Shown: piece after piece, positions 29,803 to 51,855 of the stretch | How the letters are laid out: each line of letters begins with the position of its first letter | Numbering within the stretch: the stretch's first letter is position 1 | Notes under the pieces: model-generated | Seen by the model: only the letters and a program-made list of their open reading frames with translations | The model's database searches: none | What the model was told of the DNA's origin: nothing | Assembly (NCBI GenBank): GCA_934793215.1 | Contig: CAKVOP010000001.1 | Location: 66,280 to 130,279, forward strand | Direction of reading: 5' to 3' | DNA from: an uncultured Clostridia bacterium | GTDB lineage: Bacteria; Bacillota; Clostridia; Christensenellales; UBA1242 | Length of the DNA stretch: 64,000 bases | Made by a program: the position numbers and the translations under genes

Positions 29803-30546
29803 TTATCTTTCTGGTTCTTCATCTTCAAGGTCGGTAGGCTCGCCATTTTCTGGTTTCGCACCACAAGCAATGAGCAGTGTTATGATATCTTTTTGCTGAT
29901 AATACTCGGCGATATCGAGTGCACTTTTTCCTTCGTTATTTCTAACATTTATATCAGCACCATGATCTATAAGCAATCTACAAGTATCTTTTTTGCCTGC
30001 TGATGCTGCTTTCATTAATGGTGTGCTTCCATTTTCATTGACAGCATTAACATCAGCGCCGTTTTCAATGAGTAGCCTGCAAACGCTTGTGTGTCCAGTC
30101 AATGCACCAACCATCAATGCAGTGCATTTATCTGCATCTACCGCATTTACAAGTGCACCATTTTGAATAAGAAGTTTGCAAACCTCTATTTGACCAGTCC
30201 ATGTGGCTTCCATAAGTGGGGAACACCCCATTAGGCCGACAGCATTAACATCAGCACCATGATTGATTAAAAATCGGCAAATCTCTGTTTGCCCTTTTAA
30301 CGCTAAACGCATAAGTAGCGTGTAGCCGAACTTGTCATTTGAATTAACATTTGCGCCATTTTCAATTAAAAGCTCGCAGATTGCCATTTGTCCTTTTGTA
30401 ACTGCAATCATTAAAGCGGTGCATTCATTTTTATCAATAGCATTTACATCGGCTCCGTCTTTTAAAAGCTTTTGAATCTTTATAATGTTTCCTTCCTTGC
30501 ATGCACTCAAGAACTTTTCATCTAACAGTAATTTTTTGTTTTTCAT
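29803..30546 (-). CDS. ankyrin repeat protein (about 7 ANK repeats, acidic C-terminus)
   Basis: Repeated G.T.LM.A...G....C.LLI..GA.VN units through the whole protein. No signal peptide seen. Confidence 0.9.
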   Translation of the reverse strand: MKNKKLLLDEKFLSACKEGNIIKIQKLLKDGADVNAIDKNECTALMIAVTKGQMAICELLIENGANVNSNDKFGYTLLMRLALKGQTEICRFLINHGADVNAVGLMGCSPLMEATWTGQIEVCKLLIQNGALVNAVDADKCTALMVGALTGHTSVCRLLIENGADVNAVNENGSTPLMKAASAGKKDTCRLLIDHGADINVRNNEGKSALDIAEYYQQKDIITLLIACGAKPENGEPTDLEDEEPER

Positions 30547-35848: not shown

Positions 35849-37054
35849 TTATTTATTTGTTTTTTTCTTTTTGCCTTTAAACTTATAACTTTCTGGATTA
35901 TTTAATGCATCAAATACAATATCTGCTATTTCATCAGCGCCATTTTTGGTCCTGTCAAGTTTGTATGTGTTTTCCCTATACTCATCAAGGGCATGTGGGT
36001 TGTCGACATAGAATTCAACAAGTTTTTTTGCTTTCTTTTTGTTTTTAACAAAAATGCCTGTTTTATAAACTTCTGTAAATAATTTGTTTGAAGCTTTTTC
36101 GATTGGTCCGCTGTAAAAGTTTGTCATAATAGGCGTGTGAACAAACACCGAGTCTGTAATTGCGTTTGGACCCGCTTTTGTTATAAATAGGTCACTTGCA
36201 CAATAATATTCTTCAATATTTCTAGTAAATGGCAATGGAACAAATGTAATATTTTGAGGAATTTTATTTTTCATGTTTTCGTATTCCTTCAAAAGTTGTT
36301 CGTTTCGTCCTGCTACTGGAATAATAGTGATGTCTCGGTTGGTTTTTAAAAGTTCTCTTGTAAATTTATCCATATTTGCTGATGCATAGGCGCCGTCTGC
36401 AAGGATAACAGTAAATTTGTCCTTTGGTAAGTTCAATTTTTCTCTGCATTCATCTTGCGACATTGAAAAATTTTGGATAGACTCTCTTGCCATGAAGTTG
36501 ACTTGCTTTACTTGAGAAGGCAAACACTTTTTCTTGTTGATTGCTTCATTTGTTGCCATATCATTATTGGTGAACAATATGTCACATCTTCTATCCCACC
36601 AACCATGAACGCAATGGTCAGGGTCGTATATTACATTAAGCCAATTGTTTTCTTTGTTATTTTTGCATGCCTCAACACCATAAAATGCTGGCTCAAAGTG
36701 TGTGCTAATAACCATGTCTGGCTTTAATGCTTCAAGATGTTTTATGCATTTTTTATATATTTTATTGAACACAGATTTATATACGAATTTTAATGTTCCT
36801 TGTTCTGTAAAAAGTTTCATGCAGGCAAATTGAAAATCCAAATAGCCCTTGTGTTTATTTGAAAATTTTACATTATCAATAAGCATTTTTTCATGTTTAA
36901 TAAGGTCCTTATCTTCATCTGCTCTAAATATGTAGTCTCTTATAACTTCAATTTCGTTAGGATATTTTTTTTCTAAACTTTGTGCTATTGATTCGGCAGT
37001 AACAATGTGTCCTTGTCCTGCTTCAACAAATGTCACAACTACTCTTTTTTTCAT
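35849..37054 (-). CDS. MGDG-synthase/UgtP-like diacylglycerol glycosyltransferase
   Basis: N-terminal VVVTFVEAGQGHIVTA (the GxGH motif of this GT28-like family). About 400 aa. ATG at 37054 follows an AAGGGGG RBS. Confidence 0.6.
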   Translation of the reverse strand: MKKRVVVTFVEAGQGHIVTAESIAQSLEKKYPNEIEVIRDYIFRADEDKDLIKHEKMLIDNVKFSNKHKGYLDFQFACMKLFTEQGTLKFVYKSVFNKIYKKCIKHLEALKPDMVISTHFEPAFYGVEACKNNKENNWLNVIYDPDHCVHGWWDRRCDILFTNNDMATNEAINKKKCLPSQVKQVNFMARESIQNFSMSQDECREKLNLPKDKFTVILADGAYASANMDKFTRELLKTNRDITIIPVAGRNEQLLKEYENMKNKIPQNITFVPLPFTRNIEEYYCASDLFITKAGPNAITDSVFVHTPIMTNFYSGPIEKASNKLFTEVYKTGIFVKNKKKAKKLVEFYVDNPHALDEYRENTYKLDRTKNGADEIADIVFDALNNPESYKFKGKKKKTNK

Positions 37055-37269
37055 TCTTCCCCCTTTGCGTCTTATCATTATAACCCATTCTTAATAAAAA
37101 AGCAAGTAGGCGAGCCGCTTGCTTTCGTCAAATCCATTTTAAATCATTATTGGTTGGTTTTTAAAATAAGTTTGTCAAAGTTTATGAATTATTTTTTTTG
37201 CTAGTTTATCAACTATTAAAATGCCCAGATTGAACAGTTTTTATATGTTTATTCTTCTCTTTAGGGAGG

Positions 37270-37965
37270 TTAGTTCCCGCTTAAAATACTTACTAGTGCA
37301 AGGGTGGCAACCACTGCGGTGTCACAGCGAAGAATTCTTTTCCCAAGACTTATAGTTTGACTTTTTGCCATGATTTCTTTTGCTTCTTTATCGGCAAAAC
37401 CGGCTTCATTCCCTATAACGACGCAAATGTTTTGAGCATCATTAATCATACTTTCGCTAAACGCAGTTTCAGCATTTTCGTAAGCAAAAATTACTTTATC
37501 AAAACCATCTAATTTTTCAATCATTTTTTTAAATGCAATAGGTTGGCTTACCTTGACCAAAGCAGAACGTTCACATTGTTTGCAAGCGGTTGTCACCATA
37601 TTTTTTACGCGTTCTTCTTTAAAGTTTTTCATTATTGTCCATTCGCTTGTAAAAAATTGTATTTCGCTCACTCCCATTTCAATGGCTTTTGGAATGATGT
37701 TGTCAAAATATTCTTTTTTGGGCATCATTTGAAAAAGTACTATATTGCGTTTTGGGGCCCCTTCGTTTACTTTTACATTGTCAATGTGGCATCGGCAGAA
37801 ATCTTTTTCGAATTTTTGTAAAGTGCAGTAATAATCATTTTCATCATTTACACAGGCAATAATTTTGTCGCCTTCGTTTAGCCTTAAAACTTTTTTAAGA
37901 TGGAAAAATTCATCGCCCTCAATTATAATGTTGTCATTTTCTTTTTTGCCAAAAAACCTTTTCAT
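37270..37965 (-). CDS. rsmE: 16S rRNA (uracil1498-N3)-methyltransferase RsmE
   Basis: MKRFF...IIIEGDEFFHLKKVLRL PUA-like N-terminus and a SPOUT C-terminus (IGNEAGF, LGKRILRCDTA). Confidence 0.85.
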   Translation of the reverse strand: MKRFFGKKENDNIIIEGDEFFHLKKVLRLNEGDKIIACVNDENDYYCTLQKFEKDFCRCHIDNVKVNEGAPKRNIVLFQMMPKKEYFDNIIPKAIEMGVSEIQFFTSEWTIMKNFKEERVKNMVTTACKQCERSALVKVSQPIAFKKMIEKLDGFDKVIFAYENAETAFSESMINDAQNICVVIGNEAGFADKEAKEIMAKSQTISLGKRILRCDTAVVATLALVSILSGN

Positions 37966-38086
37966 AATTCCTCTACGATTATTATAGCATATTTAAATCA
38001 AATTTGAAAGAGATTATTTAATGTGCGCGAATTATAGTTTGTATAAATGCAATTCTCTTGACAAAATTTTAAAGTGCGGGAATTGC

Positions 38087-38119
38087 AAAAAGCAGGGTTG
38101 AAAGTTTTTTCAATCCTGC
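38087..38119 (-). terminator. Rho-independent terminator of the Cys/Pro-rich gene
   Basis: On the minus strand: GCAGGATTGAAA-loop-TTTCAACCCTGC followed by TTTTTG. Confidence 0.75.
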
Positions 38120-38128
38120 CTAAAATTG

Positions 38129-38434
38129 TTAAATGCAGTCCCTGCTTATACTTGATGACAACAAATATCCAGCAAGGAAGAAAAGTGTTGACTTTGGAAA
38201 TGAAAATTGTACGCAGTCACATTTTCTTTCATGTTCTGGGCAACAGCCTCCGCAAGGAGGATATGGCTGTGGACAAGGCGGAAATTGTGGAGGGTAAGGA
38301 ATGTTCCAAGGTGGAATAGATGTGCAAGGGGACAAGCAAGGAGAAGTACAATGGGGAATGCATGGATTCTGTCCGCAACAATAGTTAGGACGCAAAGACA
38401 CGCATTTGCCCATACGATAAGGACAAGTTTTCAT
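38129..38434 (-). CDS. small Cys/Pro-rich protein (candidate spore coat/exosporium component)
   Basis: AAAGGAG RBS and its own terminator. 101 aa with 15 Cys and many Pro (CIPHCTSPCLSPCTS, PPCPQPYPPCGGCCP). Confidence 0.6.
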   Translation of the reverse strand: MKTCPYRMGKCVSLRPNYCCGQNPCIPHCTSPCLSPCTSIPPWNIPYPPQFPPCPQPYPPCGGCCPEHERKCDCVQFSFPKSTLFFLAGYLLSSSISRDCI

Positions 38435-38490
38435 AATTGCTCCTTTTAAAGTAATATACTTTGATTTTGCCTCGTAAAATATAAGGATTT

Positions 38491-39525
38491 ATGTTTTATG
38501 CTTTTTTGGCTATTGTAGGGGGAGTCATTGGTTCTGGATTTATAACCGGCAAAGAAATTGCCGTGTTTTTTGCTAGAAATGGCCTTTTTGCCTTTGTAGG
38601 TGCCATTTTTTCAACGATTTTTTTCTTTTTTCTTTTTAAATACTTTCTTTTTCACGGAGAAAAAGTAGCTTCGCTTCTTGCTTCCTCAAAAATGTTTTTG
38701 TTTATCTCGATTTTGCTAAATGTAATTTTGTCAGCATCGATGATAGCAGGGATTGTTGACATATCTTGTGAGGCTGGGGAAATGGCATCTTTAATTATTA
38801 TCATAACGCTTATTTCTTGTCTTTTTGTTTTTAAAAAGGGAATAAGAGCTCTTGACAATTTCAATATGGCGTTGGTGCCTTTAATGATTGTAGTGTTTGT
38901 TATCATCTTTTTACCAAAAATTTCTTTAAATTTTCATTTCGCGAAGGGTGGTATAATCTCATCTTTGTGGTTTAGCATTCTTTATACTGTGCTAAATATT
39001 GCCAATATGACCTTGCTTCTTTCCTCACTTGGAGCGAAATTAAGAAAAAAGCAGAAAACGCAAGTGGCTTTTTGGGCAACACTTGCGCTTGGAATCCTGC
39101 TTCTTTTAGTAGTGGCAGTTTTACTTCAAAATCAATCAGTTATAGGGCAAGATATGCCACTTCTTTCCTTGGTAAATTCATGGCAAAAGGTGGTAATGAG
39201 CGGGCTCATCTTCCTTGGAAGCGTAACCTCACTTTTTTCATTCGTATATGCAAGTTCATCATCTTTAAGAGGGCTGAACAAAAATGAAATGATAAACTTT
39301 TTTCTTTCAATTCTTTTGCCACTTATTATAAGTTTTTTGGGATTTGGGTTTATCGTGACATATATTTACCCGCTTGCAAGTGTTCTTGGCATCTTGCTTC
39401 TTGGAATGATTTTTTTGCCTCGATTATTTTTTAACCCTTTTCTCAAATATGCCAACAAGAAGATACATTCCTCCTGCAAGCGCGCAAAGCAAAATGATAC
39501 TGGTCATGACGATGTCAAGTTTTAA
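38491..39525 (+). CDS. YkvI-family membrane protein (APC-superfamily-like permease)
   Basis: N-terminal GGVIGSGFITGKEIAVFF matches the remembered YkvI motif G.GFA.GQEI..FF, with about 10 TM helices. The last 34 codons overlap the convergent permease gene. Confidence 0.6.
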   Translation: MFYAFLAIVGGVIGSGFITGKEIAVFFARNGLFAFVGAIFSTIFFFFLFKYFLFHGEKVASLLASSKMFLFISILLNVILSASMIAGIVDISCEAGEMASLIIIITLISCLFVFKKGIRALDNFNMALVPLMIVVFVIIFLPKISLNFHFAKGGIISSLWFSILYTVLNIANMTLLLSSLGAKLRKKQKTQVAFWATLALGILLLLVVAVLLQNQSVIGQDMPLLSLVNSWQKVVMSGLIFLGSVTSLFSFVYASSSSLRGLNKNEMINFFLSILLPLIISFLGFGFIVTYIYPLASVLGILLLGMIFLPRLFFNPFLKYANKKIHSSCKRAKQNDTGHDDVKF

Positions 39526-40242
39526 TATTTGACTGCCGTAGTTGATAAGGTATCCAAGCCCTGCTTGCGATGAAAGGTATTCACCCATAATTGTGCCAAC
39601 CCAACTCATTCCAACATTAATCTTTAAAACGCTAACAAAGTCGGGAAGAGCAGATGGAAGCACCAGTTTAAAGAATATCTGTGCTTTGCTTGCGTGCATT
39701 GATTTCATAAGCAAAATTTTATCTTTGTCACATGAAATGAATGCGTTTAGAGTGGAAATAATTGTTATAATAACGCAAATTAAAACGCACATAACAATCG
39801 TCGCACCAGTTCCAGAGCCTACCCAGAATATAATCATAGGCCCGAGGGCAATTTTCGGAAGGGAATTTAGAATGACAAGATAAGGCTCTAAAACTTTTCG
39901 CAAATTCTCACTCCACCATAGTGCAACGGCAATAACAAAGCCAATAGCAGAAGCAAGCAAAAATCCAATTATGGTTTCATACAGTGAAGTCCAGATATGA
40001 ATCCAAAGGTTGTTTTGACTGGCAAGAGCACCAATACAAGAACATATTCTAGAAGGACTTGAAAAGAAAAATGGGTCTAAAACTTCAACACTTGAAAGAA
40101 GTTCCCAAATCCCGAGGAAAATCAAGAAAAGAGCAATTCGCCAAAAAATAACCCAAAATTTATTCTTTTTTACATTTTTCAAATAAATTTGGCGTGCTTT
40201 TGAAAAATTATTCTTTTTTTGCTTCAACATAAATCTCTCCAA
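39424..40242 (-). CDS. ABC transporter permease, NitT/TauT (SsuC-like) family
   Basis: BPD_transp_1-type membrane protein with six TM helices. An alternative start at 40230 is possible. Overlaps the ATPase gene's end. Confidence 0.8.
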   Translation of the reverse strand: MERFMLKQKKNNFSKARQIYLKNVKKNKFWVIFWRIALFLIFLGIWELLSSVEVLDPFFFSSPSRICSCIGALASQNNLWIHIWTSLYETIIGFLLASAIGFVIAVALWWSENLRKVLEPYLVILNSLPKIALGPMIIFWVGSGTGATIVMCVLICVIITIISTLNAFISCDKDKILLMKSMHASKAQIFFKLVLPSALPDFVSVLKINVGMSWVGTIMGEYLSSQAGLGYLINYGSQILKLDIVMTSIILLCALAGGMYLLVGIFEKRVKK

Positions 40243-40979
40243 ATTTTTTCAAATAGCGTTCCAAATTTTTTGTCCTCTCGTTTTTTGAGAGGGCTTTTTT
40301 GTGGAAAAGACAAGAGGACTTCTTCTTTGACGGACGCAGGTCTCGATGACAAAATGATAACTTTATCGGACATGCTTAACGCTTCCGAAATGTCATGTGT
40401 GACAAGGAGCGCTGTTTTTTCTTCCGTTTTTATAATGTCATACACATCATCGCAGACTTTTAGCCTCGTTTGAAAATCAAGGGCTGAAAAAGGTTCGTCT
40501 AAAAGTAAAAGAGTCGGCTCCATAACCAAAGTTCTAATCAGTGCAACTCTTTGCCTCATGCCTCCGCTAAGCTGTCGAGGCTTTTTGTTTATAAAGTTGT
40601 AAAGGTCATACTTTTTTAGCAGCGAAAGGGCAAATTCTTTCTTTTTCTCGTCTTTTGAAAGTTTGTTAATTTCAAGACCAAGGGTGACATTTTGCCAAAT
40701 AGTTCTCCACTCAAAGAGGTGGTCTTTTTGGAACATGTATCCTATTTTTTCATCGTTTTGTTTTATCTTTTCTCCGCCAAGCAAAATTTCTCCGCTCGAT
40801 GGCGTCAAGAGTCCAGCAATGAGTGAAAGAATTGTAGTTTTTCCACAACCACTTGGCCCCACTAGTGAAGAAAAACTCTTTTCTTCAAGAGAAAAATTAA
40901 TATTGTCAAGCGCCTTTATCTCGCTTTCTTTTGTTTGATAGAAAAAAGAAACATTTTTCATCTCTAGTAAGTTGTTCAT
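40224..40979 (-). CDS. ABC transporter ATP-binding protein, NitT/TauT (SsuB-like) family
   Basis: Walker A GPSGCGKTT, signature LSGGMRQRV, Walker B LLLLDEPFSALD and the family-typical YMFQKDHLFEW. Confidence 0.9.
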   Translation of the reverse strand: MNNLLEMKNVSFFYQTKESEIKALDNINFSLEEKSFSSLVGPSGCGKTTILSLIAGLLTPSSGEILLGGEKIKQNDEKIGYMFQKDHLFEWRTIWQNVTLGLEINKLSKDEKKKEFALSLLKKYDLYNFINKKPRQLSGGMRQRVALIRTLVMEPTLLLLDEPFSALDFQTRLKVCDDVYDIIKTEEKTALLVTHDISEALSMSDKVIILSSRPASVKEEVLLSFPQKSPLKKREDKKFGTLFEKIWRDLC

Positions 40980-41113
40980 TGTTTGACCTCTACAATATCA
41001 GTCTAGCAAAAGGCGGAGGTGATTGTGACAACTTTTCAAAATTTTTGGCAGTAAAGGTGGAAAAGCGTGAAGTGGCAAGGGTATAATGTTGCCAAACTCA
41101 AAAAGGGGAACAG

Positions 41114-41404
41114 ATGGAAGAGGAGGACATGATAAAAAAAGCCTTGCTTAAAAAGGCACTAGGCTATGATGCAGACGATGTTGTAAAAGAGTACACAGGC
41201 GGTGAAGATGGTGACATTGTGCTAGCCAAAAAGAAAGTCACCACAAAGCATTATGCACCTGACGTGTCAGCGGTAAAACTGCTTCTTGACAGATACTATA
41301 AAACTTATAAAGAAATCGTGGACGAAATGACAGATGAAGCCCTGGAAGAGGAAAAGAATAGACTTGAAAAACTTATTAAGGAGGAAGAAGATGGAACTTC
41401 ATGA
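41114..41404 (+). CDS. small-terminase core-like protein lacking an N-terminal HTH
   Basis: KKALGYDADDVVKEY..GEDGDIVLAKKKVTTKHYAPDVSAVKLLLDRY resembles, from memory, the oligomerisation core of SPP1 G1P-type TerS (IALGQEKEQV...THVEVSAKDRIKALELLGK). An in-frame stop lies 8 codons upstream. Confidence 0.4.
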   Translation: MEEEDMIKKALLKKALGYDADDVVKEYTGGEDGDIVLAKKKVTTKHYAPDVSAVKLLLDRYYKTYKEIVDEMTDEALEEEKNRLEKLIKEEEDGTS

Positions 41405-41627
41405 GTGTAATCATTTTTGCAAATGCGACTTTAATGGCTGTAATAACAGAGCAAAGTATACTTTCTCATGTGGTGGGAACATCAGGCGTGATCTTTGCTT
41501 TTGTGAAGAATGTTTGAAGGGAATGTATAACGAAATATCCAAAATGTTCGTGCCAAAAGCGATCAAAAGTCCATTTAAGATAAATCAAAGATTAAGGAGA
41601 GAAGATGAAAGAAGAAAAGATTGTTAA
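41391..41627 (+). CDS. Cys-rich (zinc-ribbon-like) small protein
   Basis: AAGGAGG RBS. MELHECNHFCKCDFNGCNN...CGG...CFCEECLKG followed by a basic tail. Overlaps both neighbouring genes. Confidence 0.55.
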   Translation: MELHECNHFCKCDFNGCNNRAKYTFSCGGNIRRDLCFCEECLKGMYNEISKMFVPKAIKSPFKINQRLRREDERRKDC

Positions 41628-43446
41628 AGAAGTCCTTGACGACTTTAAGAAACGCGCCGAAGAGCGCAAAAGTTTTGACCTCATTTGGCAGATAAACTCT
41701 AACTTTTTAATGGGTAACCAGTACTGTAATGTGGGTTACGGTGGTGAACTCGAAGAGCAAGACCGTCAGTTTTTTTGGCAAGAGAGGGAAGTTTTCAACC
41801 ATATCGCACCAATTTATGACATAAGATTTGCAAAACTATCAAAAGTCAAACCAAACATAAACATCTTGCCTGCGACAAACGAAGAAAAGGACAAGCAAAT
41901 TGCCAAAATTTCAAAGAAAATTTATCAATCTGTGAAAAACAAACTTGAAATAAATGAAAAAGTGAACCAAGCAATAAAATGGAGTGAGGTTTGTGGAACA
42001 GTGTTTTATAAAGTGGGTTGGAACTCAAATATTGGGCAGGTTGTAGGAATTGGTGAAAACGACAAAAAAATCACCTCGGGTGAGGTCGAACTCAGTGTGG
42101 TAAGCCCATTTGAAATTTATCCAGATTCCGCCACTTGTGAAAGTCTTGATGAGTGCCAGAGCATAATTCACGCCAAGGCGTATAAGACCAGTCAAATTAA
42201 ATCAATGTATGGCATCGATGTGAAAGGGCAAGACGTAAATGTGTTCTCGCTTGACGGAGTCAGTGGGTCTGTTGGAGGTCTTGGGTTTAATGGAGCGATG
42301 CCCAAAATTATACAAACCCGCAAAACAGATTCAGCGGTTGTGGTTGAAAGATATGTTCGACCTTGTGCTGAATATCCTAATGGGCGTCTTACCATAGTCG
42401 CTGGCGACAGGCTTGCTTTCGATGGAGATTTGCCATATATGATTAAAGATGACAAGGAGCGGGACTTCCCATTTATTAGACAAACCAGTATCGAGGAGCC
42501 GGGCTGCTTTTGGGGAACTAGTGTAATTGAACGCCTTATTCCTGTGCAAAGAGCCTACAACGCGGTTAAAAATCGCAAACATGAATTTATTAATCGTATT
42601 TCTATGGGAGTACTTTCTGTTGAAGATGGTTCCGTCGACCTTGACAATTTAGAACAAGAGGGGCTATGCCCGGGGAAAGTCTTGGTTTATAGACAGGGGG
42701 CAAAAGAGCCTCAATATCTTCAAAGTGAGGCGATAAGTGGCGAACTTGCAAAGGAAGAAGATGCACTTTTAGAGGAGTTTAACAAAATTAGCGGAGTTAG
42801 TGATATTTTGGGATCGAGCGGAGTTTCAGCAAATATGAGCGGAGTTACGCTTGAGCTCATGATCTCGCAAGACGAAACACGACTTAATGCCTCTGTTGAA
42901 GCAATCAAGATTGCGATGCGTGAAATTGCCAAAAAGATTTTAAAACTTTATAGACAATTTGCGGTTTTCCCACGCCTTGCAAGAATAGTGGGTGAAAATG
43001 GAGATGTGGAAATATTTTATTTCTCGTCAAGTGATATAACAAGCGATGACATAATTGTGGACGATTACGCAGACACCAATCAAACGCTTTCTCAACGAAG
43101 AGAAATGATTTTTAACTTGCTTGAAAATGGAATTTTGACTGACGAGAAAGGAAATCTTACAAACAAAATGAAAACAAAAGTAATGGAGATGCTAGGAATT
43201 GGTGCATGGGAAAGTGCTCAAGACATAAATGAGCTTCACATTAAAAAGGCGGATAAAGAAAACTTCAAACTGCTTGACGGTATTAATTTAAAGCCTAGTG
43301 AAATTGATGACCATGAACTTCACATAAATGAGCATGTGGCTTTTATGCTGGGTGAAGATTTTGAAAAGAAAAAAGCTAAAAATCCAAAAATAGAACAAAT
43401 TTTTTTAGAGCATGTTAAGGCTCACAAGATGATGAAGGAGGAATAA
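41605..43446 (+). CDS. phage portal-like protein
   Basis: 613 aa. N-terminal W..N.NFL.GNQY motif typical of portal families. It sits ahead of the scaffold- and capsid-like genes. AAGGAG RBS. Confidence 0.6.
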   Translation: MKEEKIVKEVLDDFKKRAEERKSFDLIWQINSNFLMGNQYCNVGYGGELEEQDRQFFWQEREVFNHIAPIYDIRFAKLSKVKPNINILPATNEEKDKQIAKISKKIYQSVKNKLEINEKVNQAIKWSEVCGTVFYKVGWNSNIGQVVGIGENDKKITSGEVELSVVSPFEIYPDSATCESLDECQSIIHAKAYKTSQIKSMYGIDVKGQDVNVFSLDGVSGSVGGLGFNGAMPKIIQTRKTDSAVVVERYVRPCAEYPNGRLTIVAGDRLAFDGDLPYMIKDDKERDFPFIRQTSIEEPGCFWGTSVIERLIPVQRAYNAVKNRKHEFINRISMGVLSVEDGSVDLDNLEQEGLCPGKVLVYRQGAKEPQYLQSEAISGELAKEEDALLEEFNKISGVSDILGSSGVSANMSGVTLELMISQDETRLNASVEAIKIAMREIAKKILKLYRQFAVFPRLARIVGENGDVEIFYFSSSDITSDDIIVDDYADTNQTLSQRREMIFNLLENGILTDEKGNLTNKMKTKVMEMLGIGAWESAQDINELHIKKADKENFKLLDGINLKPSEIDDHELHINEHVAFMLGEDFEKKKAKNPKIEQIFLEHVKAHKMMKEE

Positions 43447-44052
43447 ATGGAAGACAGAGAACAACCGACAATGGAACCAGCAAATGTTTTAAACGCAACG
43501 GAGGAAGAAAGTGCTGTGAGTGAGGTCGGCTCTCGCGAAAAAGCAGACCTTGGGAAATTTAAAAGCGTAGAGGATCTTATGGACGCATACAACTCTCTAC
43601 AAAGTGAGTTTACAAGGAAATGCCAACAGCTTAGTCAAACGCTTAAAGATAAAACTGAAATTGAAGTGCCAAAAGAAAGGGAAACCTTTGACGAAGGTAA
43701 GTTTAATGAGTTCCTTGAAGAAAATGACAAGGCCAAAAACTATGCTGATGAGATAAAAAATCTTGTCACACAACAGGGCTCTGCCTCTTATGAGGACGCT
43801 TGGGGCAGAGCTCTTTTAAATCGTATTAAAAGCGACGAGAACTCTTCAAGCGACCCTCTTATTAATCAGTATGTTTTATCTAACGAAGAATTAAAAAACA
43901 AAGTTATCGAAGATTATCTTGAAAGGCTAAAAGGGACAAGCGCCCCTTATGTTATGGCTTCTTCTGGTGGTGAGAGACTTTCAAGCGTAAGCGAGCAAAG
44001 CCCCACCACGCTTGAAGAGGCAAAAGTCCTTACAAGAAAAATGTTTGAATAA
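43447..44052 (+). CDS. scaffolding-like protein (acidic, helical)
   Basis: 201 aa, Glu/Lys-rich with a coiled-coil character. Abuts the portal stop and lies between the portal and capsid genes. Confidence 0.5.
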   Translation: MEDREQPTMEPANVLNATEEESAVSEVGSREKADLGKFKSVEDLMDAYNSLQSEFTRKCQQLSQTLKDKTEIEVPKERETFDEGKFNEFLEENDKAKNYADEIKNLVTQQGSASYEDAWGRALLNRIKSDENSSSDPLINQYVLSNEELKNKVIEDYLERLKGTSAPYVMASSGGERLSSVSEQSPTTLEEAKVLTRKMFE

Positions 44053-44132
44053 TTAGTTTTTTCGACAAAATTTTCGTTAAAAAACATCAAAAAACATGTA
44101 AAAACTATAAAAACGAAGAAAAAGGAGAAAAA

Positions 44133-45356
44133 ATGGTTACTTTACAAACAGCAGATAATGCTTTAAAAAATGTTTATCTTGGAGTTGTTGCAAACCAACT
44201 CAACGTTAAAGCAAACCCACTTCTTGCAAAAATCAAACGCACAAGCAAAGATGTGTGGGGAAAAGAAATTAGAAAACTTGCACCATTTGGAATTAATGGT
44301 GGTGTAGGGGCAGGTGGCGAAACTGACGCTCTTCCAGATGCTTCTGGCAATGGGTATGTTCAATTCGTCAGTGAGCTTAAAAACCTTTATGGTAAAATTG
44401 AGATTTCTGACAAAGCAGTTAGAGCAAGCCAAAATAATATAGGTGCTTTTGTCAATCTATTAACTGATGAAATGGAAGGTCTTGTTAAGGCAAGTGCTTT
44501 CAACCTTGGAAGAATGTTGTACGGAGATGGAACTGGTCTTCTTGCAACAGTTTCTGCCGTTTCAAACAAAACACTTACTTGCGACAAAGTAAACAATCTC
44601 ATTGAAGGAATGCTTGTTGACGTATATTCAACTAGTGGAAAACTTAACACTACTCCACTAAAAATCACTTATGTAGACAGAGTAAATAAAAAGTTTACAT
44701 ACACTGGTACTACAAGCACAATATCTCAAAACTGCAAAGTTTATGTTCAAGGTTCAAAAGATAAAGAAATTTCTGGGCTTGGAAAGATCTTTGATTCAAG
44801 TGCTACTTCTATTTATGGAGTTAGCAAATCGGATAATCCTTGGCTTACTCCATATGTAAGCACAACTGAACAAGAGATTTCTGATATTGTTATCCAACAA
44901 GCGATTGACTTCCTTGATATGAATGTTGACAGCCAAATCAACTTCATTTCTTGTTCAAGCCAAGTTAGACGTGCATATCAAGAATATCTTGGTGCGTATA
45001 GAAGAAATATTGATATCGCAGTTCTTGACGGTGGATACAAAACAATTACTCACAATGGTATTCCTGTTGTTGCAGATAGATTTGTTGATAATGATACAAT
45101 GTATCTTCTTAACACAAATGATTTTACTCTTCATGAACTTTGCGACTGGCAATGGCTCCAAGGTGAGGACGGCAGAATTTTGAAACAAAAAGAAGGCTAT
45201 CCAACATACTCTGCAACCCTTGTTAAATACGCTGAACTTATCTGTGATAAGCCATGCGGACAAGCAAAAATTTCAGGTATTAAGTCAACAGTGACAAATC
45301 CTTTTGCTACAAACTTGACAGTAAATAATAATACTACAACTACACCAACTGAATAA
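44133..45356 (+). CDS. major capsid-like protein
   Basis: 407 aa with a strong AAAGGAG RBS and the expected position after the scaffold gene. Contains a spine-helix-like segment (LTDEMEGLVKASAFNLGRMLYGDGTG). The fold was not verified. Confidence 0.55.
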   Translation: MVTLQTADNALKNVYLGVVANQLNVKANPLLAKIKRTSKDVWGKEIRKLAPFGINGGVGAGGETDALPDASGNGYVQFVSELKNLYGKIEISDKAVRASQNNIGAFVNLLTDEMEGLVKASAFNLGRMLYGDGTGLLATVSAVSNKTLTCDKVNNLIEGMLVDVYSTSGKLNTTPLKITYVDRVNKKFTYTGTTSTISQNCKVYVQGSKDKEISGLGKIFDSSATSIYGVSKSDNPWLTPYVSTTEQEISDIVIQQAIDFLDMNVDSQINFISCSSQVRRAYQEYLGAYRRNIDIAVLDGGYKTITHNGIPVVADRFVDNDTMYLLNTNDFTLHELCDWQWLQGEDGRILKQKEGYPTYSATLVKYAELICDKPCGQAKISGIKSTVTNPFATNLTVNNNTTTTPTE

Positions 45357-45487
45357 TTAAAAATTTATAAGGGCAAAAACTCTTTTTAAGGTAAAATCTT
45401 AAGACTTATTTTAATATTTCAATTATAGGTTTTGATTTTAGCAAAATAGATTTTTTGCCTTTTTAATAAATTTTGGAGGCAAAAATC

Positions 45488-45799
45488 ATGAAAAATCTTT
45501 TAATTATTGAAGGTGACACCTTTTTTATAAATGAAAGACTTAAAGAGATTGACAGAGATTACTATGTTGTTTTCAATCTTGAAAAACAAAAATACGAAGT
45601 TCATGTACATGGACAGGCAGGTAATAGTTATGCTTTTACATTACCCTTTGATAGCCTTGACGAGCGAGCACTTTTGTTTGCTCAAAAAACTCGCATAGAA
45701 AATATGGATAAAATTTTAGAAGAGATTGAAAGAGATAACGAGCAGTCTTATGAACGCCTCATAAAACAGCAGATGAATTTATTGAAGGAGATAATATGA
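45488..45799 (+). CDS. hypothetical protein in the head module
   Basis: GGAGG RBS at 45475-45479. 103 aa. Stop overlaps the next start. Confidence 0.5.
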   Translation: MKNLLIIEGDTFFINERLKEIDRDYYVVFNLEKQKYEVHVHGQAGNSYAFTLPFDSLDERALLFAQKTRIENMDKILEEIERDNEQSYERLIKQQMNLLKEII

Positions 45800-46350
45800 A
45801 AGTAAAAGATATAATCATTTTAGCACTAGATTTTTGTCACGAAGACAGTCTTGCATCACTTTTGAGAACTCAAGAACCAAGTTTGACTGACGAACAGCAA
45901 GAAAAAGTAAACGCTATGACAAGGTGTTTCAACCTTGTTTATGAAGAATTGTCAAGTCAATATCTTCCAATAATCAAAACCGAAACTGTAAGTACTAGTG
46001 ATGGGAAAGTGCTCTTTTCAAGTTTGTCTCAAAAAGTTTTAGATATTGTGGAGGTAAAAAATTCTCATGGCAGAAGAATTAAATTTAGAAAGTTTGATTC
46101 TTACCTTTTTGCCCTTGCTAGCGAAGTGACAGTGTCATATAAAACCATTCCAGCCACGCTTACCGATTCTGGAGAATTTTCTTGCCCATTGCCAGAAAGA
46201 ATTTTTGCGTATGGTGTTGCTAGAGAGTTTTTCTATTTGCTTGGTGCGAGTGACGAGGCTGAAATTTATGATAATCGCTTTAAAGACAGCCTTCTTGTTT
46301 TGCTTGGTAAGTCAAAAGAGATAGTAATGCCCGCGAGGGGGTGGATTTAA
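45796..46350 (+). CDS. hypothetical structural protein (candidate head-tail adaptor/head completion)
   Basis: 184 aa with an AAGGAG RBS. The call rests on position and size only. Confidence 0.4.
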   Translation: MKVKDIIILALDFCHEDSLASLLRTQEPSLTDEQQEKVNAMTRCFNLVYEELSSQYLPIIKTETVSTSDGKVLFSSLSQKVLDIVEVKNSHGRRIKFRKFDSYLFALASEVTVSYKTIPATLTDSGEFSCPLPERIFAYGVAREFFYLLGASDEAEIYDNRFKDSLLVLLGKSKEIVMPARGWI

Positions 46351-47831
46351 TGATATATTTAAATAAGCACACCCCCGCCAAAGCAAAGACAAAAGAGGTT
46401 TCAATATCTTTTGCACAAAAGGATACTTTGGCAGAAGACCTAAAAGAGGGAAAGGGGGAACTTGTATACAACATCACAATCAACAAGGGTGCTTTGAGAA
46501 GTGGCCTTGGATTTGAAAATCTTGCTTCTGCCGTGGATACAGTCAATATAGACACCGAGGTGACATTGCCACTCCGCGGAAATCAAGTCAAGGCAATAAA
46601 TCAACTTTGTTGGCATGACGAAACTGATGATATTACGTCATATTACATTTTTTATTACAATAATGAAGGCTTGATTTGCTATGATGGACTTTATGAGGAG
46701 CGTCTCATTCCAAGCACTATACAAAATAATTTCACAGATATTCCTATTACGTTTCCTTATAAAACTAATGGCGTAGAATGCTTGGTTTTTTCTGGGAAAG
46801 GGACAACAGTGCTTATAGGAAGCGGTGGAAGTAGAACGCTCGAAAAGGTTCCGGGCATGCTTTCGTGCGTAAGTCATTATGGAATGTTTTTTGGAATTAA
46901 AATTCATACTCCGCCAAAGCTTATTTATTCACCAGTGACTGATCTCACAAAATGGGACGACACACTGGTTAAAAACCTTGACTTTACTGATGCAAGGGGA
47001 GAACTTACAAGGCTTGTTTCGTTTAATGACTATGTCTACATATTTAGAAATTATGGGATAACTCAACTTTCTAAATATTCTCAAGATGAAGAATTTTCAA
47101 TTAGTCATATGTATCAAGCCTGCTCTTATATAAATCCAAACACAATTTGCCAGTTTAAAGACGCAGTCTATTTTGTTGAAGATTGCACGCTTAAAGCATT
47201 TAATGGCAATAGCGTAAAGGATATAGAAGTTAAAAACTTTAAATATATGAAAGGTGTCACCAACACTGCACTATTTGGAACATGTTATAAAGGCAAATAT
47301 TACCTCGCGTGTAGATGCGATTTTGGTGATAACGAAGTTGTTGGTTGTGAGGGATATTCTGCAGGATATACAAATAATGCACTCATTTCTTACGACCTTA
47401 CTACTGGCGAAGAAGAGGTCTTACGAGGAGTGGATATAAATCAAATTATGAATTTTGTCACCCCTTTTAAGAGTAAACTTTTAGCATGCTTTAGAAATCA
47501 GCATATTGATAAAATAGGGCAACTTACTTCTAACGGAAAAATTTTTGGTCAATCCCTAAAAAGCAAGTTTGAGAGTACCTATACTGATTTTGGCACAAAA
47601 AGCGCCCGTAAAACGCTTACAAAAATCACTTATAAATGCAGTGGGAAAGTTGCATGTAAGATTATTTGTGATGGACAGGAAAAAACTTTCACACTTGACG
47701 GAAATGGTGTTATGAAAACAAAAAGATTGTCTTTGACTGGGAGAGAGTTTAAGTTTATCTTGACTGGAAACCTTGCACCAATAAATCTTGATGACTTTGT
47801 TGTGACGGCTAAAATTCGCGATGAAAATTGA
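46350..47831 (+). CDS. large beta-rich structural protein (candidate nozzle/tail stub or receptor-binding protein)
   Basis: TAATG stop/start coupling at 46348-46352. 493 aa rich in Gly/Asn/Tyr/Thr, suggesting beta repeats. No family recognised. Confidence 0.45.
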   Translation: MIYLNKHTPAKAKTKEVSISFAQKDTLAEDLKEGKGELVYNITINKGALRSGLGFENLASAVDTVNIDTEVTLPLRGNQVKAINQLCWHDETDDITSYYIFYYNNEGLICYDGLYEERLIPSTIQNNFTDIPITFPYKTNGVECLVFSGKGTTVLIGSGGSRTLEKVPGMLSCVSHYGMFFGIKIHTPPKLIYSPVTDLTKWDDTLVKNLDFTDARGELTRLVSFNDYVYIFRNYGITQLSKYSQDEEFSISHMYQACSYINPNTICQFKDAVYFVEDCTLKAFNGNSVKDIEVKNFKYMKGVTNTALFGTCYKGKYYLACRCDFGDNEVVGCEGYSAGYTNNALISYDLTTGEEEVLRGVDINQIMNFVTPFKSKLLACFRNQHIDKIGQLTSNGKIFGQSLKSKFESTYTDFGTKSARKTLTKITYKCSGKVACKIICDGQEKTFTLDGNGVMKTKRLSLTGREFKFILTGNLAPINLDDFVVTAKIRDEN

Positions 47832-47920
47832 AGTTAGATATTTCGTCCGTTTAGTAAGAGCGAGAGAAAAAGAAAGACTTTTTCATAAGTTTGAATCGTT
47901 CTTGCCAAAAGGAGAAATAA

Positions 47921-48148
47921 ATGGATTTTTGGAATGAACTTGTAAAGATCGTCATAAGTAATGGTGTTTTTGCGACACTCTTTGTTTTCTTGTTTTTCTA
48001 TCAACTTAAAGATTCAACACGCAGGGAAAAGGAGTATCGCACTACGATAGACAACCTTATGAAACATCTTAAAATTATTGACGAGGTGCGAGCGGAAGTA
48101 AGTGACCTAAAAGATTTAGTTTTGGAGAAACAAAATGAAAAGGTTTAA
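47921..48148 (+). CDS. BhlA/UviB family holin-like peptide
   Basis: NGVFATLFVFLFFYQLKDSTRREKEY parallels the remembered BhlA sequence QGPFAVLFCWLLFYVMKTSKERESKLY. One TM helix plus a charged helical tail. Confidence 0.7.
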   Translation: MDFWNELVKIVISNGVFATLFVFLFFYQLKDSTRREKEYRTTIDNLMKHLKIIDEVRAEVSDLKDLVLEKQNEKV

Positions 48149-48449
48149 AAATTATGGATTTTGGACTGCGCTTTCTGGTGCTCTCGTGCTGTTTCTTAAA
48201 ACACTAGGTGAAGCCTTTGGGTTTTCAATCCACCAAGAAACGGTTTCAAATCTTGTTATGGCACTAGCCGAACTTCTTGTTGTTTTTGGAATTGTTGTAA
48301 TGCCAAGAAACAAAGAGGATAGTTCGTCAACAGAAGAAAAAGGTGACGATGCTATCGGCACTGATGACAAACAAGAAGATAAAGAAAAAGTGGAAGAAAA
48401 AGAAGAAACTCAAGGCAAAAAGCCTGATGACGAGAAAGATAAAGAGTAG
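48135..48449 (+). CDS. phage holin (phiLC3 / Phage_holin_1-like) with a long acidic C-terminal tail
   Basis: MKRFKNYGFWTALSGALVLFLK...FG matches the KN..FW.AL.SA..L motif of this holin family. Overlaps the bhlA-like gene by 14 nt. Confidence 0.65.
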   Translation: MKRFKNYGFWTALSGALVLFLKTLGEAFGFSIHQETVSNLVMALAELLVVFGIVVMPRNKEDSSSTEEKGDDAIGTDDKQEDKEKVEEKEETQGKKPDDEKDKE

Positions 48450-48463
48450 TCTTTTCACAACTT

Positions 48464-48496
48464 AAAAAAGTCGGCACTTTAAATGCCGACTTTTTT
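48464..48496 (+). terminator. strong Rho-independent terminator closing the island
   Basis: AAAAAA-GTCGGCA-CTTTAAA-TGCCGAC-TTTTTT. Confidence 0.85.
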
Positions 48497-48738
48497 GTTT
48501 AAATGAGTTATGATTTAAAAATATAAATTTGTGCCACTCGTGCTCCTCAAATAATCCTCTCTTTTTTCACAGCGAAGCAAGCATATGTTTTTGATTTGCG
48601 TTTCAAATTCTAGATGAAAACTTGTTTTAAATTGCTTTTTTATGATAATTTAGATAAAAACGCCATAATTTTCTAAAAAAACTTGAAAATAATGTCATAT
48701 TTCTTTAATTATTTAACCAAATTTGTTAAAATAGCCAT

Positions 48739-50829
48739 ATGAAAAAAGTCGTAAATTATCGTCCACTATTTTTTATCTTTGTTTTTCTCCTTTGCGGAAT
48801 TATTATGGCAAGGAAGGTTTTTGACAAAGATTTTCTAGTTATTTCAATTTTAGTGTTAACGATAATTGCGATGGTAATATGGCTTTGCGTCGCGAAAAAA
48901 TTTAAAATTTTGTGTCTGCTTTTGGGCGTGTTTATTTTGGGAGGAGGACTATTCTTTGCTGGCAAGGCGTGCTATAAAGTAAACGAATACACGGGGCAAG
49001 TGGCAGTTGTTGGAAGAGTGACGGATTCTATTAAAGAAGGTGACCACTATTATAGAGTTGTTTTAGACGATGTTGTCATTGAAGGCAAAAGCGACAAAAA
49101 TATTTCTTTATACATAAGCGTTCGAGACGGCAAGACGGTAAAAGCAGGTGATAAAATTGCTTTTGAATCTAGCCTTGAAAGTGTTTCTCTTTGGACATTA
49201 AAAAATTTCAATTCATACTACTATCGCAATAATATTGGCTATGTTACTTCAATCAATTCAAGTTCGTTGGTTGTGATTGATGGTGGATTAAAACTTGACG
49301 AAAGCATAAGACAGACTGTCAAAAAAAGACTTGAAGATAATCTTTCAAAGGAAAATGCTGGACTTTGTTATGCACTTTTGTTTGGCGATAAAATTGAGAT
49401 TTCAAACGACACTCTTTTAAATTACAAAAATGCAGGAATAATTCATATTTTGGCAGTTAGTGGACTGCATGTTAGTTTTCTGTTAGCACTACTTCTTGGA
49501 CTAATGAAATTATGCAAGGTCAATAAATATGTTAGTTTTGTTTTGGCAACAACTTTTATTATATTTTTTGCCTATCTTTGCTCATTTACTCCTTCGGTTG
49601 TAAGAGCAGGACTTATGTGCATTTTCTTTATGCTTTCTCGTCTTCTAGGCAGAAGATATGACACGCTTTCTTCACTGGGACTTGCGGGAAGTATCATTTT
49701 ACTGGTCAGTCCGCTTACGGCATTTGACATTGGGTTTTTGATGAGCGTATTTTGCGTGCTTGGGATAAGCATGCTTTCAAAGCTTTTCACAAAAGTGTTT
49801 GTAAAAGCTATGCCATATTCCGTCGCCTCTGCTCTTTCGGTTTCACTTTCAAGCCAAATTATAACATTACCTTTTACTGCTTATTTTGGTGGAAAATTTA
49901 ACTTTCTCTCGCCATTTGTAAACTTAATCATTGTGCCTTTCTTTGGCATTCTTTTCCCTTATCTTGTGGTTGCGAGTTTTGTCAGTGCTATTTTGCCTTT
50001 TATGGGATTTATTCTTGCACCTGCTGGCTGGGGATTTAGTGCAGTAACAAGTGTTGTAAGATTCTTTGGAAACACAAGTCTTTATTTACCTATTGAAAAA
50101 GTTCATGTCACCGTGATGATAATGTTTTTTGTGCTTATCTTTGTTTTTAGCAAATTTGTGCTTTTGCCTTTTAACAAAAAATCGGCAGTTATTGGCACGC
50201 TTGCAATTCTTCTTTCTATTTGCGGACTTTTAAGTCCCCTTACGATAAAAAGTGACTTGCAATCAGCGGTTCAACTTTGTTCAAGTTCAAGTCCTTGCTA
50301 TGTCCTTACGTCATCAAGCGGAGAAAGAATGCTGGTTGGATACAATAGTTTGGTAGAGAATTATGCCAGAGAATATAACGCGAGAAAATTTGACTATTTT
50401 CTATCTTTTGAACCAATAGACGAAGAAGACACTTTGGCACTTGCCTCATTTGGTACAAGGCTATTTGTGGCGTGCAGTGGTGACAATTCGTGCGAAAACA
50501 CGATGTATTCATCTGCTGGTGAGTGTGGAGAATTTGAGTATGAATTTTTAAAAAGCGAAAATAAAATTCTTGGCGTGGGAATTAAGTTTGATGAGACAAA
50601 AATTTTTATTGCAACAGGGGCTAGCACGCGGTATAATCAAAAATATGAAGAGTATTTTGATGGATTTAAACCGAGTGTTGTTTTTGTGGGCGAAAATGAT
50701 GAAATCGGGCATGATTATGTCACTATCTCGCTAAACAAAAATGGACAATCATGGACTAGTTTTGAAGAAAATGGCAATATGAAATTTATATTTGAAAGCA
50801 TATTTGTGTACAAGGAGGCATTAGATTGA
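48739..50829 (+). CDS. comEC: ComEC/Rec2 family DNA internalisation protein
   Basis: Polytopic protein with the competence-domain motif GIIHILAVSGLHVSFL. Confidence 0.85.
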   Translation: MKKVVNYRPLFFIFVFLLCGIIMARKVFDKDFLVISILVLTIIAMVIWLCVAKKFKILCLLLGVFILGGGLFFAGKACYKVNEYTGQVAVVGRVTDSIKEGDHYYRVVLDDVVIEGKSDKNISLYISVRDGKTVKAGDKIAFESSLESVSLWTLKNFNSYYYRNNIGYVTSINSSSLVVIDGGLKLDESIRQTVKKRLEDNLSKENAGLCYALLFGDKIEISNDTLLNYKNAGIIHILAVSGLHVSFLLALLLGLMKLCKVNKYVSFVLATTFIIFFAYLCSFTPSVVRAGLMCIFFMLSRLLGRRYDTLSSLGLAGSIILLVSPLTAFDIGFLMSVFCVLGISMLSKLFTKVFVKAMPYSVASALSVSLSSQIITLPFTAYFGGKFNFLSPFVNLIIVPFFGILFPYLVVASFVSAILPFMGFILAPAGWGFSAVTSVVRFFGNTSLYLPIEKVHVTVMIMFFVLIFVFSKFVLLPFNKKSAVIGTLAILLSICGLLSPLTIKSDLQSAVQLCSSSSPCYVLTSSSGERMLVGYNSLVENYAREYNARKFDYFLSFEPIDEEDTLALASFGTRLFVACSGDNSCENTMYSSAGECGEFEYEFLKSENKILGVGIKFDETKIFIATGASTRYNQKYEEYFDGFKPSVVFVGENDEIGHDYVTISLNKNGQSWTSFEENGNMKFIFESIFVYKEALD

Positions 50830-51767
50830 AAACATTAAAACAAAGACTTAAAGAAGGGCTTAAAAATTGCTATATTATGAGCGGTGACGACTATTATCTT
50901 TATGAACGAGCATATGAGATGATAAAAAAAGTTGCCAACATTGAACTTGAAGATTTTAACCTTGTCAAATTTGACGATGAAAACTTTTCAATGAAAGGAC
51001 TTTTAGATTCGTGTGAAGTTATGCCTATGGGAAGCGAAAAGAGGCTAATACTCGTGAAAAACATAGTAAAAGTCACTGAAAATGATAAAAAACTTTTGGA
51101 AGACTATCTTGAAGCACCGGTTGAAAGCACTATTATTGTGATTTTTGATTATTTTGATAAATTTTCGTCAATCAAAAATTGTGAAAGGGTTGATTGCAAG
51201 CGTTTTGACAATAAGACTGCACTTGCGGTTATTGCAAGTGAACTTGAAAAGAAAGGCAAACAAATTTCCACAGAGGCTGGGCAAACTTTGCTTGATTACT
51301 GCAACGGATATTTGACTAGGGTAAACTGCGAACTTGACAAGCTGGCTTACTACGATATTACAAACCCTCTAATCACAAAGAAAATGGTTGAAGAACTTGT
51401 CAGTAAAGACACCGATTATGTAGTGTTTGAACTTACAGAGGCACTAGGTCAAAAAAATGCAGATAAAGCACTTAAAATTTTAGAAAAAATGATAAAAGAG
51501 CAGGGCGTTTTGGGGCTTATTACAAACCATTTTAGAAGACTTTTCTTTATTTCAATAAGTGACATGACCGACAATGCTCTTTCGGGGTTATTGGGCGTAA
51601 AGGAATATGCAATAAGAAAACAGCGCGAACAAGTGAAAAACTTTTCTAAACTTCAACTTAAAAAAATCTATGCTCTTTTAGAGGAAGTGGACTATAAGAT
51701 TAAAAGCGGGGCAATGCTTGCCGACACTGCATTAAACTACCTCGTATTGTCAATTTTGTATATTTAA
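50826..51767 (+). CDS. holA: DNA polymerase III delta subunit
   Basis: TTG start 7 nt after AGGAGG, overlapping the comEC stop. N-terminal CYIMSGDDYYL pattern and the canonical comEC-holA order. Confidence 0.75.
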   Translation: MKTLKQRLKEGLKNCYIMSGDDYYLYERAYEMIKKVANIELEDFNLVKFDDENFSMKGLLDSCEVMPMGSEKRLILVKNIVKVTENDKKLLEDYLEAPVESTIIVIFDYFDKFSSIKNCERVDCKRFDNKTALAVIASELEKKGKQISTEAGQTLLDYCNGYLTRVNCELDKLAYYDITNPLITKKMVEELVSKDTDYVVFELTEALGQKNADKALKILEKMIKEQGVLGLITNHFRRLFFISISDMTDNALSGLLGVKEYAIRKQREQVKNFSKLQLKKIYALLEEVDYKIKSGAMLADTALNYLVLSILYI

Positions 51768-51855
51768 AATGGCTTAAAAGTCTTATAAATGCTTTGTAAA
51801 AAGACTTGCAAATGCGGGGCAAAGTGTGGTAAGATAAATTTAGGAGAAAATAACT

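Follow-up and report, generated by a model that had tools for sequence, protein, structure and literature searches.

The gene transfer agent (GTA) of Rhodobacter capsulatus, RcGTA, has as its gp1 a small terminase subunit (TerS) without a DNA-binding domain, and it has been proposed that this absence defines the GTA-type TerS (Sherlock et al. 2019, PMC6854486). A second agent, FpGTA of Faecalibacterium prausnitzii, is encoded by an operon of ten open reading frames (ORFs) that includes a TerS, again without a DNA-binding domain, together with the large terminase subunit (TerL), a portal, a scaffold and a capsid protein (Nat Commun 2026, PMC12946183). A second locus, 125 kb away, contributes more genes for structural proteins and for lysis, and the capsids, which are about 40 nm in size, hold 8.4-8.9 kb of host DNA. 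The same work notes that split loci are normal in known GTAs, and it reports GTA-like packaging in Christensenellaceae, with fragments of 4.1 kb in HGM11616 and 6.3 kb in QANA01, for which no gene cluster was assigned (PMC12946183). The subject of this analysis is a 64-kb stretch of DNA from an uncultured Clostridia bacterium (contig CAKVOP010000001.1), referred to here as the window, in which two short genes, ORF1 and ORF2, are the first of ten same-strand genes that extend over 7.3 kb, from 41114 to 48449. We consider it reasonably probable that ORF1 and ORF2 open a domesticated, vertically inherited head operon of the podovirus type, and that this operon is a GTA-like element of Christensenella-like gut Clostridia.

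ORF1 shares homology with the region of TerS proteins that follows their N-terminal helix-turn-helix (HTH) domain. PHROG 309, annotated as 'terminase small subunit', is matched by all 33 aligned ORF1 homologues (best E 7e-8), and a second TerS family, PHROG 23444, by 11 of the 33. The AlphaFold2 monomer model, which has a mean predicted local distance difference test score (pLDDT) of 84, is composed of a helix, a long beta-hairpin and three helices; as modelled, the hairpin would be compatible with an oligomeric barrel. When this model was compared by Foldseek with BFVD, the top match was a TerS model (E 2.6e-5), and several further matches are also annotated as TerS. A link to a phage terminase is provided by contig MT835637.1, in which the gene directly upstream of TerL encodes a 185-amino-acid protein whose residues 4-64 match the Pfam Sf6_terminase HTH (32.5 bits, cut-off 27). 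Residues 63-117 of this phage TerS are aligned by hhalign with residues 5-59 of ORF1 (probability 95.8%, E 8e-9, 35% identity), over a stretch that includes the motif LLKKALGY...PD.SA.K.LL. The two proteins share the core, whereas the HTH and the position directly upstream of TerL belong to the phage protein. As the alignment starts after the Sf6_terminase HTH, ORF1 begins where the DNA-binding domain of a normal TerS ends.

The lack of an HTH is a trait of the whole ORF1 family and not a local truncation. No Pfam HTH was detected in ORF1 or in the 10 longer family members examined. A profile search of 1.84 billion representative proteins recovered 1145 clusters, the 150 best-scoring of which have a median length of 106 amino acids, and a tblastn search of phage records with the ORF1 consensus gave no match. 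Among the matches listed, 95 homologues of ORF1 and 20 of ORF2 are nearly always of the same, short length, and some are found on contigs of up to 429 kb. Lys/Arg-rich tails make up 19 of the 53 extensions of 20 or more amino acids that are seen among the 150 best representatives. In many longer members of the family (P0275, P0276, P0289, P0376, P0388, P0395 and others) the HTH is replaced by Lys-rich N- or C-terminal tails that resemble histone H1. The composition of these tails hints at non-specific DNA binding by the family.

An earlier, sequence-only reading of this DNA had likened ORF1 to a TerS core and had remarked on the missing N-terminal HTH, and both observations are borne out by the profile, structure and alignment matches given above. 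The same reading placed an in-frame TAA 8 codons upstream of ORF1. The codon is in fact located at 41084-41086, 10 codons before the ATG, and the conclusion drawn from it stands: a longer ORF1 protein is excluded because this TAA overlaps the -10 box of the conserved promoter. A second possible start, M6 at 41129, is found behind GGAGG, and some homologues are called at 91 amino acids.

Judged from its sequence, ORF1 would qualify as a GTA-type TerS, with the core kept and the sequence-specific DNA-binding domain absent. In this it is like RcGTA gp1, which is also a short TerS core that has no DNA-binding domain at its N-terminus, is also encoded in a host-conserved, phage-derived cluster, and has the same proposed consequence, namely non-specific packaging. 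The proteins are likened here by domain content. For gp1 a coiled-coil, 44RR-like protein is the prediction (PMC6854486), whereas ORF1 is predicted to form a helix, a long beta-hairpin and further helices. Their positions also differ, as gp1 precedes TerL in its cluster whereas ORF1 follows TerL in its relatives and has no TerL nearby in the window. The likeness to FpGTA, which is drawn by description only, covers the gut Clostridia host, a cluster of about 10 ORFs and about 10 kb, the portal, scaffold and capsid genes, the podovirus-like proteins, the TerS without a DNA-binding domain, the apparent distribution of genes over more than one locus and the absence of replication genes. In FpGTA, however, the TerS candidate is located upstream of TerL and TerL is part of operon I, whereas the window operon has no TerL and has its holins inside.

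The operon is an intact and vertically inherited feature of its host that is held under strong purifying selection. An identical ten-gene order is found beside the same ABC-transporter genes, at one fixed chromosomal site, in dozens of species, and those that share the site and the gene order have DnaK proteins 89-95% identical to that of the window. In a scan of one genome per species, relatives of the capsid protein were found in at least 543 genomes, the best 80 of which are uncultured Clostridia or Christensenella-like metagenome-assembled genomes from gut samples; among deposited phage capsids, the closest share about 28% identity with that of the window. All complete copies are open frames of family-typical length (ORF1 in 87 loci, the portal in 89 and the capsid in 92). 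The two ORFs, as originally called, are real, intact genes of a conserved family. The ratio of nonsynonymous to synonymous substitution rates (dN/dS) was computed against a single locus, L101, where nucleotide identity is 84-92% and synonymous sites are unsaturated, because synonymous sites in L001 and L021 are near or at saturation and several of their genes could not be aligned as nucleotides. The ratio lies between 0.007 and 0.08 in nine of the ten operon genes, the same as in the flanking housekeeping genes (Table 1).

Table 1. Features of the operon and of its flanks, with positions in the window and dN/dS against locus L101
Feature	Position	Strand	Length (amino acids)	Assignment and matches	dN/dS
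Operon promoter	41046..41087	+		TGGCAG box 41046-41051; -35-like TGGAAA 41058-41063; 18-nt spacer; TATAAT 41082-41087	
ORF1	41114..41404	+	96	Candidate GTA-type small terminase; TerS-like core without HTH	0.033
ORF2	41391..41627	+	78	Cys4 (CX4C...CX2C), predicted zinc-ribbon-like; PK..I.SPFK motif; basic tail	0.007
Portal, P22/SU10-like	41605..43446	+	613	Pfam P22_portal 6.7e-18; PHROG 156 1e-35	0.008
Scaffold-like	43447..44052	+	201	Assigned by position and composition alone; family matches weak	0.076
Major capsid protein	44133..45356	+	407	PHROG 14242 1.4e-51	0.027
108-aa conserved protein	45473..45799	+	108	Synteny in groups A, B and D	0.071
184-aa conserved protein	45796..46350	+	184	Syntenic; no Pfam/PHROG family match	0.077
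496-aa virion structural protein	46341..47831	+	496	PHROG 3287 'virion structural protein' 8e-6 (weak); syntenic	0.081
BhlA-family holin	47921..48148	+	75	Pfam Holin_BhlA 2.4e-14	0.010
Second holin	48135..48449	+	104	Pfam Phage_holin_1 1.3e-4; PHROG 297 3e-11	0.24
ABC ATPase (flank)					0.026
DnaK (flank)					0.014
DnaJ (flank)					0.029
ComEC (flank)					0.059

Such conservation bears on the possibility that the operon is a decaying podovirus prophage, from which TerL and other genes were deleted and in which the two small ORFs are functionless leftovers. TerL is indeed absent locally and is found directly upstream of ORF1 in more distant relatives, and genes for an endolysin, a tail fibre and a DUF7934 protein are absent as well. 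Decay is nevertheless strongly disfavoured, and we give it very little probability, since the selection on nine of the ten genes equals that on the flanking housekeeping genes, the ORFs are intact in every complete locus, the site and gene order are identical across the species compared above by DnaK, and a conserved promoter is located exactly where TerL would be. A deletion scar was also considered and is ruled out by the shared synteny, the intact frames and the low dN/dS. The sequence-only reading had held that simple deletion would be indicated if homologues of the pair were consistently found next to a normal TerL in complete phages. The pair is indeed found beside a normal TerL, but in compact, host-embedded cassettes and not in complete phages. 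As these TerL-bearing relatives are equally compact and host-embedded, the TerL-less form is a conserved functional arrangement and not a simple product of decay.

Known phage satellites redirect packaging through variant TerS proteins, and the pair had been suggested to redirect or block the packaging of a helper in this manner. The operon would then be a satellite of the phage-inducible chromosomal island (PICI) or capsid-forming PICI-like kind, in which an HTH-less TerS and a zinc protein hijack or block the terminase of the helper; a compact, capsid-encoding island without TerL fits this description. The other hallmarks of satellites, the P4-like ones included, do not: Pfam and PHROG scans of the island genes revealed no integrase, no replication or primase gene and no repressor, there are no tRNA genes in 36000-52000, and no att-like flanking repeats were found. 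The locus is fixed and is inherited with the host, rather than sporadic, and its genes are under selection like that on DnaK or the ABC ATPase. The relatives, moreover, have their own TerL, which is 62-82% identical across cassette groups. Among the IMG/VR matches there is a drop in TerL identity, from 56-69% inside the family to 45% and thereafter to at most 33%, and as the nearest phage TerL is at most 45% identical there is no plausible helper in view. A satellite origin is thus scarcely credible.

ORF2 encodes a conserved protein with four invariant cysteines (Cys4) that is predicted to be zinc-ribbon-like. Its ATG, at 41391, is preceded by AAGGAGG, and the gene overlaps both of its neighbours, as had been noted before, by 14 nt with ORF1 and by 23 nt with the portal gene. 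The protein had been described as Cys-rich and zinc-ribbon-like, with a basic tail and about ten cysteines; the description holds, although the cysteines number nine (C6, C10, C12, C17, C27, C36, C38, C41 and C78) and only C12, C17, C38 and C41 are invariant. These four make up a CX4C...CX2C pattern that is kept in 79 of the 79 loci in which ORF2 was found. After the Cys motif come a helix, the conserved motif PK..I.SPFK and the basic tail. In the AlphaFold2 model (mean pLDDT 80, with residues 1-40 at 86-91) short strands surround the Cys pairs and are accompanied by two helices, and the zinc-finger matches that Foldseek returned from the PDB are weak (best E 1.4). No relatives of ORF2 were found in Pfam, PHROG, the PDB or, by tblastn, phage records. 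With regard to a terminase-associated HNH endonuclease, ORF2 has no Pfam or PHROG match of this kind and no invariant His.

The pair is a recurrent one: of 80 distinct loci, 70 have ORF2 placed between ORF1 and the gene for the portal. No ORF1-ORF2 fusion was seen among the 150 ORF1 family representatives. In the 10 loci without ORF2, the N-terminus of ORF1 is longer and more basic (net charge +2.7, versus +0.1), a contrast that is only suggestive because the 10 loci are related to one another. In the window, ORF1 is acidic at both ends and the only basic tail of the pair is that of ORF2. RcGTA is not known to have a zinc-ribbon partner gene. The idea that ORF2 occupies the slot of TerL does not hold, since the order in TerL-bearing relatives is TerL-ORF1-ORF2-portal.

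The promoter of the operon is itself conserved. The combination of TGGAAA, an 18-nt spacer and TATAAT is the best sigma-70-type match in 40900-48800. In nearly all window-like loci the pattern TG(G/T)CA-N7-T(T/G)G, followed by a -10 box, precedes ORF1 by 18-40 nt, and in many other loci it is found farther upstream. Taken over the window and loci L001-L092, the composite consensus before ORF1 consists of TG(G/T)CA(G/C/T), 6 nt, a TTGAAA-like -35 hexamer, 17-18 nt and TATAAT. A sigma-54 reading of the TGGCAG box was considered and rejected, as the GG-to-G spacing is 12 and not 11, and TATAAT follows the -35-like hexamer at 17-18 nt. In TerL-bearing cassettes, two genes upstream of TerL, there is a gene for a protein of the DUF1492/sigma-region-4 type, which matches the phage transcriptional activators PHROG 36 and 248, and the composite motif may be the binding site of a DUF1492-type activator of this sort. 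In seven loci (L074, L076, L078, L080-L082 and L085) a GC-poor hairpin with a T-run is situated between the conserved promoter and the start of ORF1. These are cassettes in which a surface-protein gene separates TerL from ORF1, and the element could provide a leader terminator or antitermination control, or could merely be the terminator of the upstream gene.

A number of observations, set out in this paragraph and the two that follow, weigh against the reading of the operon as a GTA-like element with a GTA-type TerS. With respect to ORF1 itself, no Pfam TerS family is matched by any of the 33 members, so that the proposed comparison with Terminase_2 and other TerS profiles failed at the level of Pfam. 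A search against PDB sequences returned nothing below E 1, and in the Foldseek comparison with the PDB the best E was 0.37 and TerS proteins account for 0 of the top 50 matches. TerS is usually encoded upstream of TerL, whereas in relatives ORF1 is downstream of it, between TerL and the portal gene. The second and third BFVD matches, one of which carries the annotation 'Structural protein 5', are Lactococcus phage proteins of about 98 amino acids, similar in size to ORF1. ORF1 might, on these grounds, be a small structural or assembly protein associated with the head or portal, with an ancient fold that is shared with TerS cores, rather than a subunit of the terminase. We regard this as unlikely, in view of the uniform PHROG match of the family and of the hhalign match to the core of an HTH-bearing TerS that is encoded directly upstream of TerL. 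In addition, the compact cassettes hold no other TerS candidate, the gene two before TerL being the DUF1492/sigma-region-4-type regulator.

The second difficulty is the absence of TerL, which had already been remarked upon and is confirmed here. No TerL was found in the window or in the 10 kb beyond its upstream end (74 kb in total), where there are housekeeping and sporulation genes only, and none is present within about 7-10 kb of any window-like locus. Five TerL sequences, used as tblastn queries against the window and against all loci, gave no TerL for the window clade, and the regions after groEL in window-like loci contain none. Pfam and PHROG scans of the island also revealed no endolysin and no recognisable tail fibre gene. 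Finally, the DUF7934 gene that comes after the 496-aa gene in other groups (for example at 17327-18256 in L009 and from 20602 onward in L099) is absent after position 47831 of the window and from all window-like cassettes, which are the same group that has no local TerL. The DUF7934 protein is about 300 amino acids long with a Glu/Lys-rich and possibly helical central part, and, on the basis of gene order and size alone, may be plug-like.

Elsewhere in the family TerL is found in several arrangements. In compact cassettes (L007-L012 and about 48 IMG/VR loci) the order is regulator, opposite-strand membrane protein, TerL, ORF1, ORF2 where present, portal, scaffold and capsid, and these cassettes sit among host genes such as gyrB/A, ispG and nusA. 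A gene for a BspA-type surface protein is placed between TerL and ORF1 in L055, L061, L074, L099 and others. The loci without an adjacent TerL, where there is none within 7-10 kb, are the window-like group, in which the ABC genes are followed by ORF1, and one further group. A detached TerL module is found in L093, L096, L184 and L185, where groES-groEL is followed by a 187-aa regulator of the sigma-region-4/DUF1492-like type, a membrane protein of about 230-285 amino acids on the opposite strand and an intact 476-aa TerL (at about 10001-11431 in L093, L096 and L184, and at 4254-5684 in L185), with no head genes within 10 kb. The lineage with detached modules is, however, a neighbour and not the window clade, as its DnaK is 81% identical to that of the window organism and 90% to that of locus L072. 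In two IMG/VR contigs TerL is truncated near residue 320-380, with unrelated genes after it (L147, 1611-2591; L146, about 2677-3801), which may reflect an insertion, for example of another prophage, into a domesticated TerL.

It could be argued from these absences that the window clade has lost both TerL and the DUF7934 protein and makes TerL-independent particles, that is, portal-bearing shells for protein or other cargo, decoys or toxin carriers, with ORF1 and ORF2 as loading adaptors at the portal. That TerL is missing from the whole 74 kb and from all window-like loci, and that selection remains strong where DUF7934 is missing too, would agree with this. So would the inspection of TerL relatives, in which none of the best 120 of 4972 could be tied to a window-like contig; the five that were looked up belong either to a TerL-adjacent cassette (L099) or to the detached modules of another lineage. 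Against it, the inspection covered just those best 120, split loci are normal in known GTAs (PMC12946183), and intact detached TerL modules exist in a sister lineage. Few of the genes are more constrained than the portal (0.008), and the operon has kept a TerS-like protein, both of which make most sense if DNA is translocated. We therefore hold TerL-independent particles to be distinctly improbable; the earlier suggestion of non-DNA cargo is likewise a minority possibility that nothing favours. The particle is most likely GTA-like, with a TerL gene that would be located outside the window.

If the operon does encode a GTA-like particle, its parts could be envisaged to act as follows. ORF1 would assemble into a TerS ring, which at the portal would recruit TerL and regulate it, with TerL acting in trans from another locus of the genome. 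Since ORF1 lacks a domain for sequence-specific DNA binding, any cellular DNA would serve as a starting point for packaging, as has been proposed for RcGTA gp1. ORF2, which would be co-translated with ORF1, probably docks on the ORF1 ring, on TerL or on the portal through its SPFK motif, and its predicted zinc ribbon and basic tail may provide non-specific contacts with DNA. The two holins would then release the particles.

The remainder of the operon invites comparison with two further systems. The likeness to phage P22 lies in the Pfam P22_portal match and in a gene order of portal, scaffold and coat, after which come proteins of 184 and 496 amino acids and, in other groups, a third of about 300; in every locus the scaffold-like gene separates the portal gene from the capsid gene. 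The sizes of the three proteins presumably parallel those of P22 gp4, gp10 and gp26, although no sequence match to the three P22 families was found among the cassette proteins in Pfam or PHROG. From gene order and size alone, the 184-aa protein is possibly a head-completion or adaptor protein and the 496-aa protein possibly an analogue of a tail hub. The operon differs from P22 in the position of TerS and in having no genes for ejection proteins or a tailspike. PBSX of Bacillus subtilis is a GTA-like defective prophage or tailocin, of the myovirus type and about 28 kb in length, that has a tail, regulators and a TerS and TerL of its own. Like PBSX, the particle predicted from the window would be a chromosomal, non-replicating, phage-derived particle of a Firmicute that is released by lysis; the window element differs in being a head operon of the podovirus type and of 7.3 kb. 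PHROG annotation also associates holins of the BhlA type with bacteriocin activity.

On its left side the operon is flanked by ABC-transporter genes that are transcribed divergently, and farther out by rsmE, dnaJ, dnaK, grpE and hrcA; its right side has comEC, holA, der, plsY, spoIVA, pcrA, ligA and ribosomal protein genes. From this gene content the host is taken to be a low-GC, spore-forming member of the Clostridia. At 38129-38434, on the minus strand, the window contains a Cys- and Pro-rich ORF of 101 amino acids (..CCGQNPCIPHCTSPCLSPC..PPCPQPYPPCGGCC..) with no Pfam match. The dnaJ-rsmE stretch of L001 has a called gene that is also 101 amino acids long and on the strand opposite to its neighbours, a likeness of length and place. 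Just upstream of hrcA, at 29803-30546 on the minus strand, there is a gene for a 246-aa protein that consists of ankyrin repeats over nearly all of its length, which is uncommon in bacteria.

With respect to the biology of this family, the pair would represent a minimal packaging-initiation system in which a TerS core and a zinc-ribbon protein that may contact DNA are made as separate polypeptides. TerL itself is, in some lineages, set apart as a module next to groESL that has a phage-type regulator of its own. Should it be true that the window clade has no TerL, a new use of a portal-bearing capsid would be implied. GTA-like packaging of host DNA is common in gut Clostridia, and its genes have been assigned in Faecalibacterium only (PMC12946183). 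The cassette described here is a concrete and widespread candidate for the packaging in Christensenellaceae that was left without a locus (PMC12946183).

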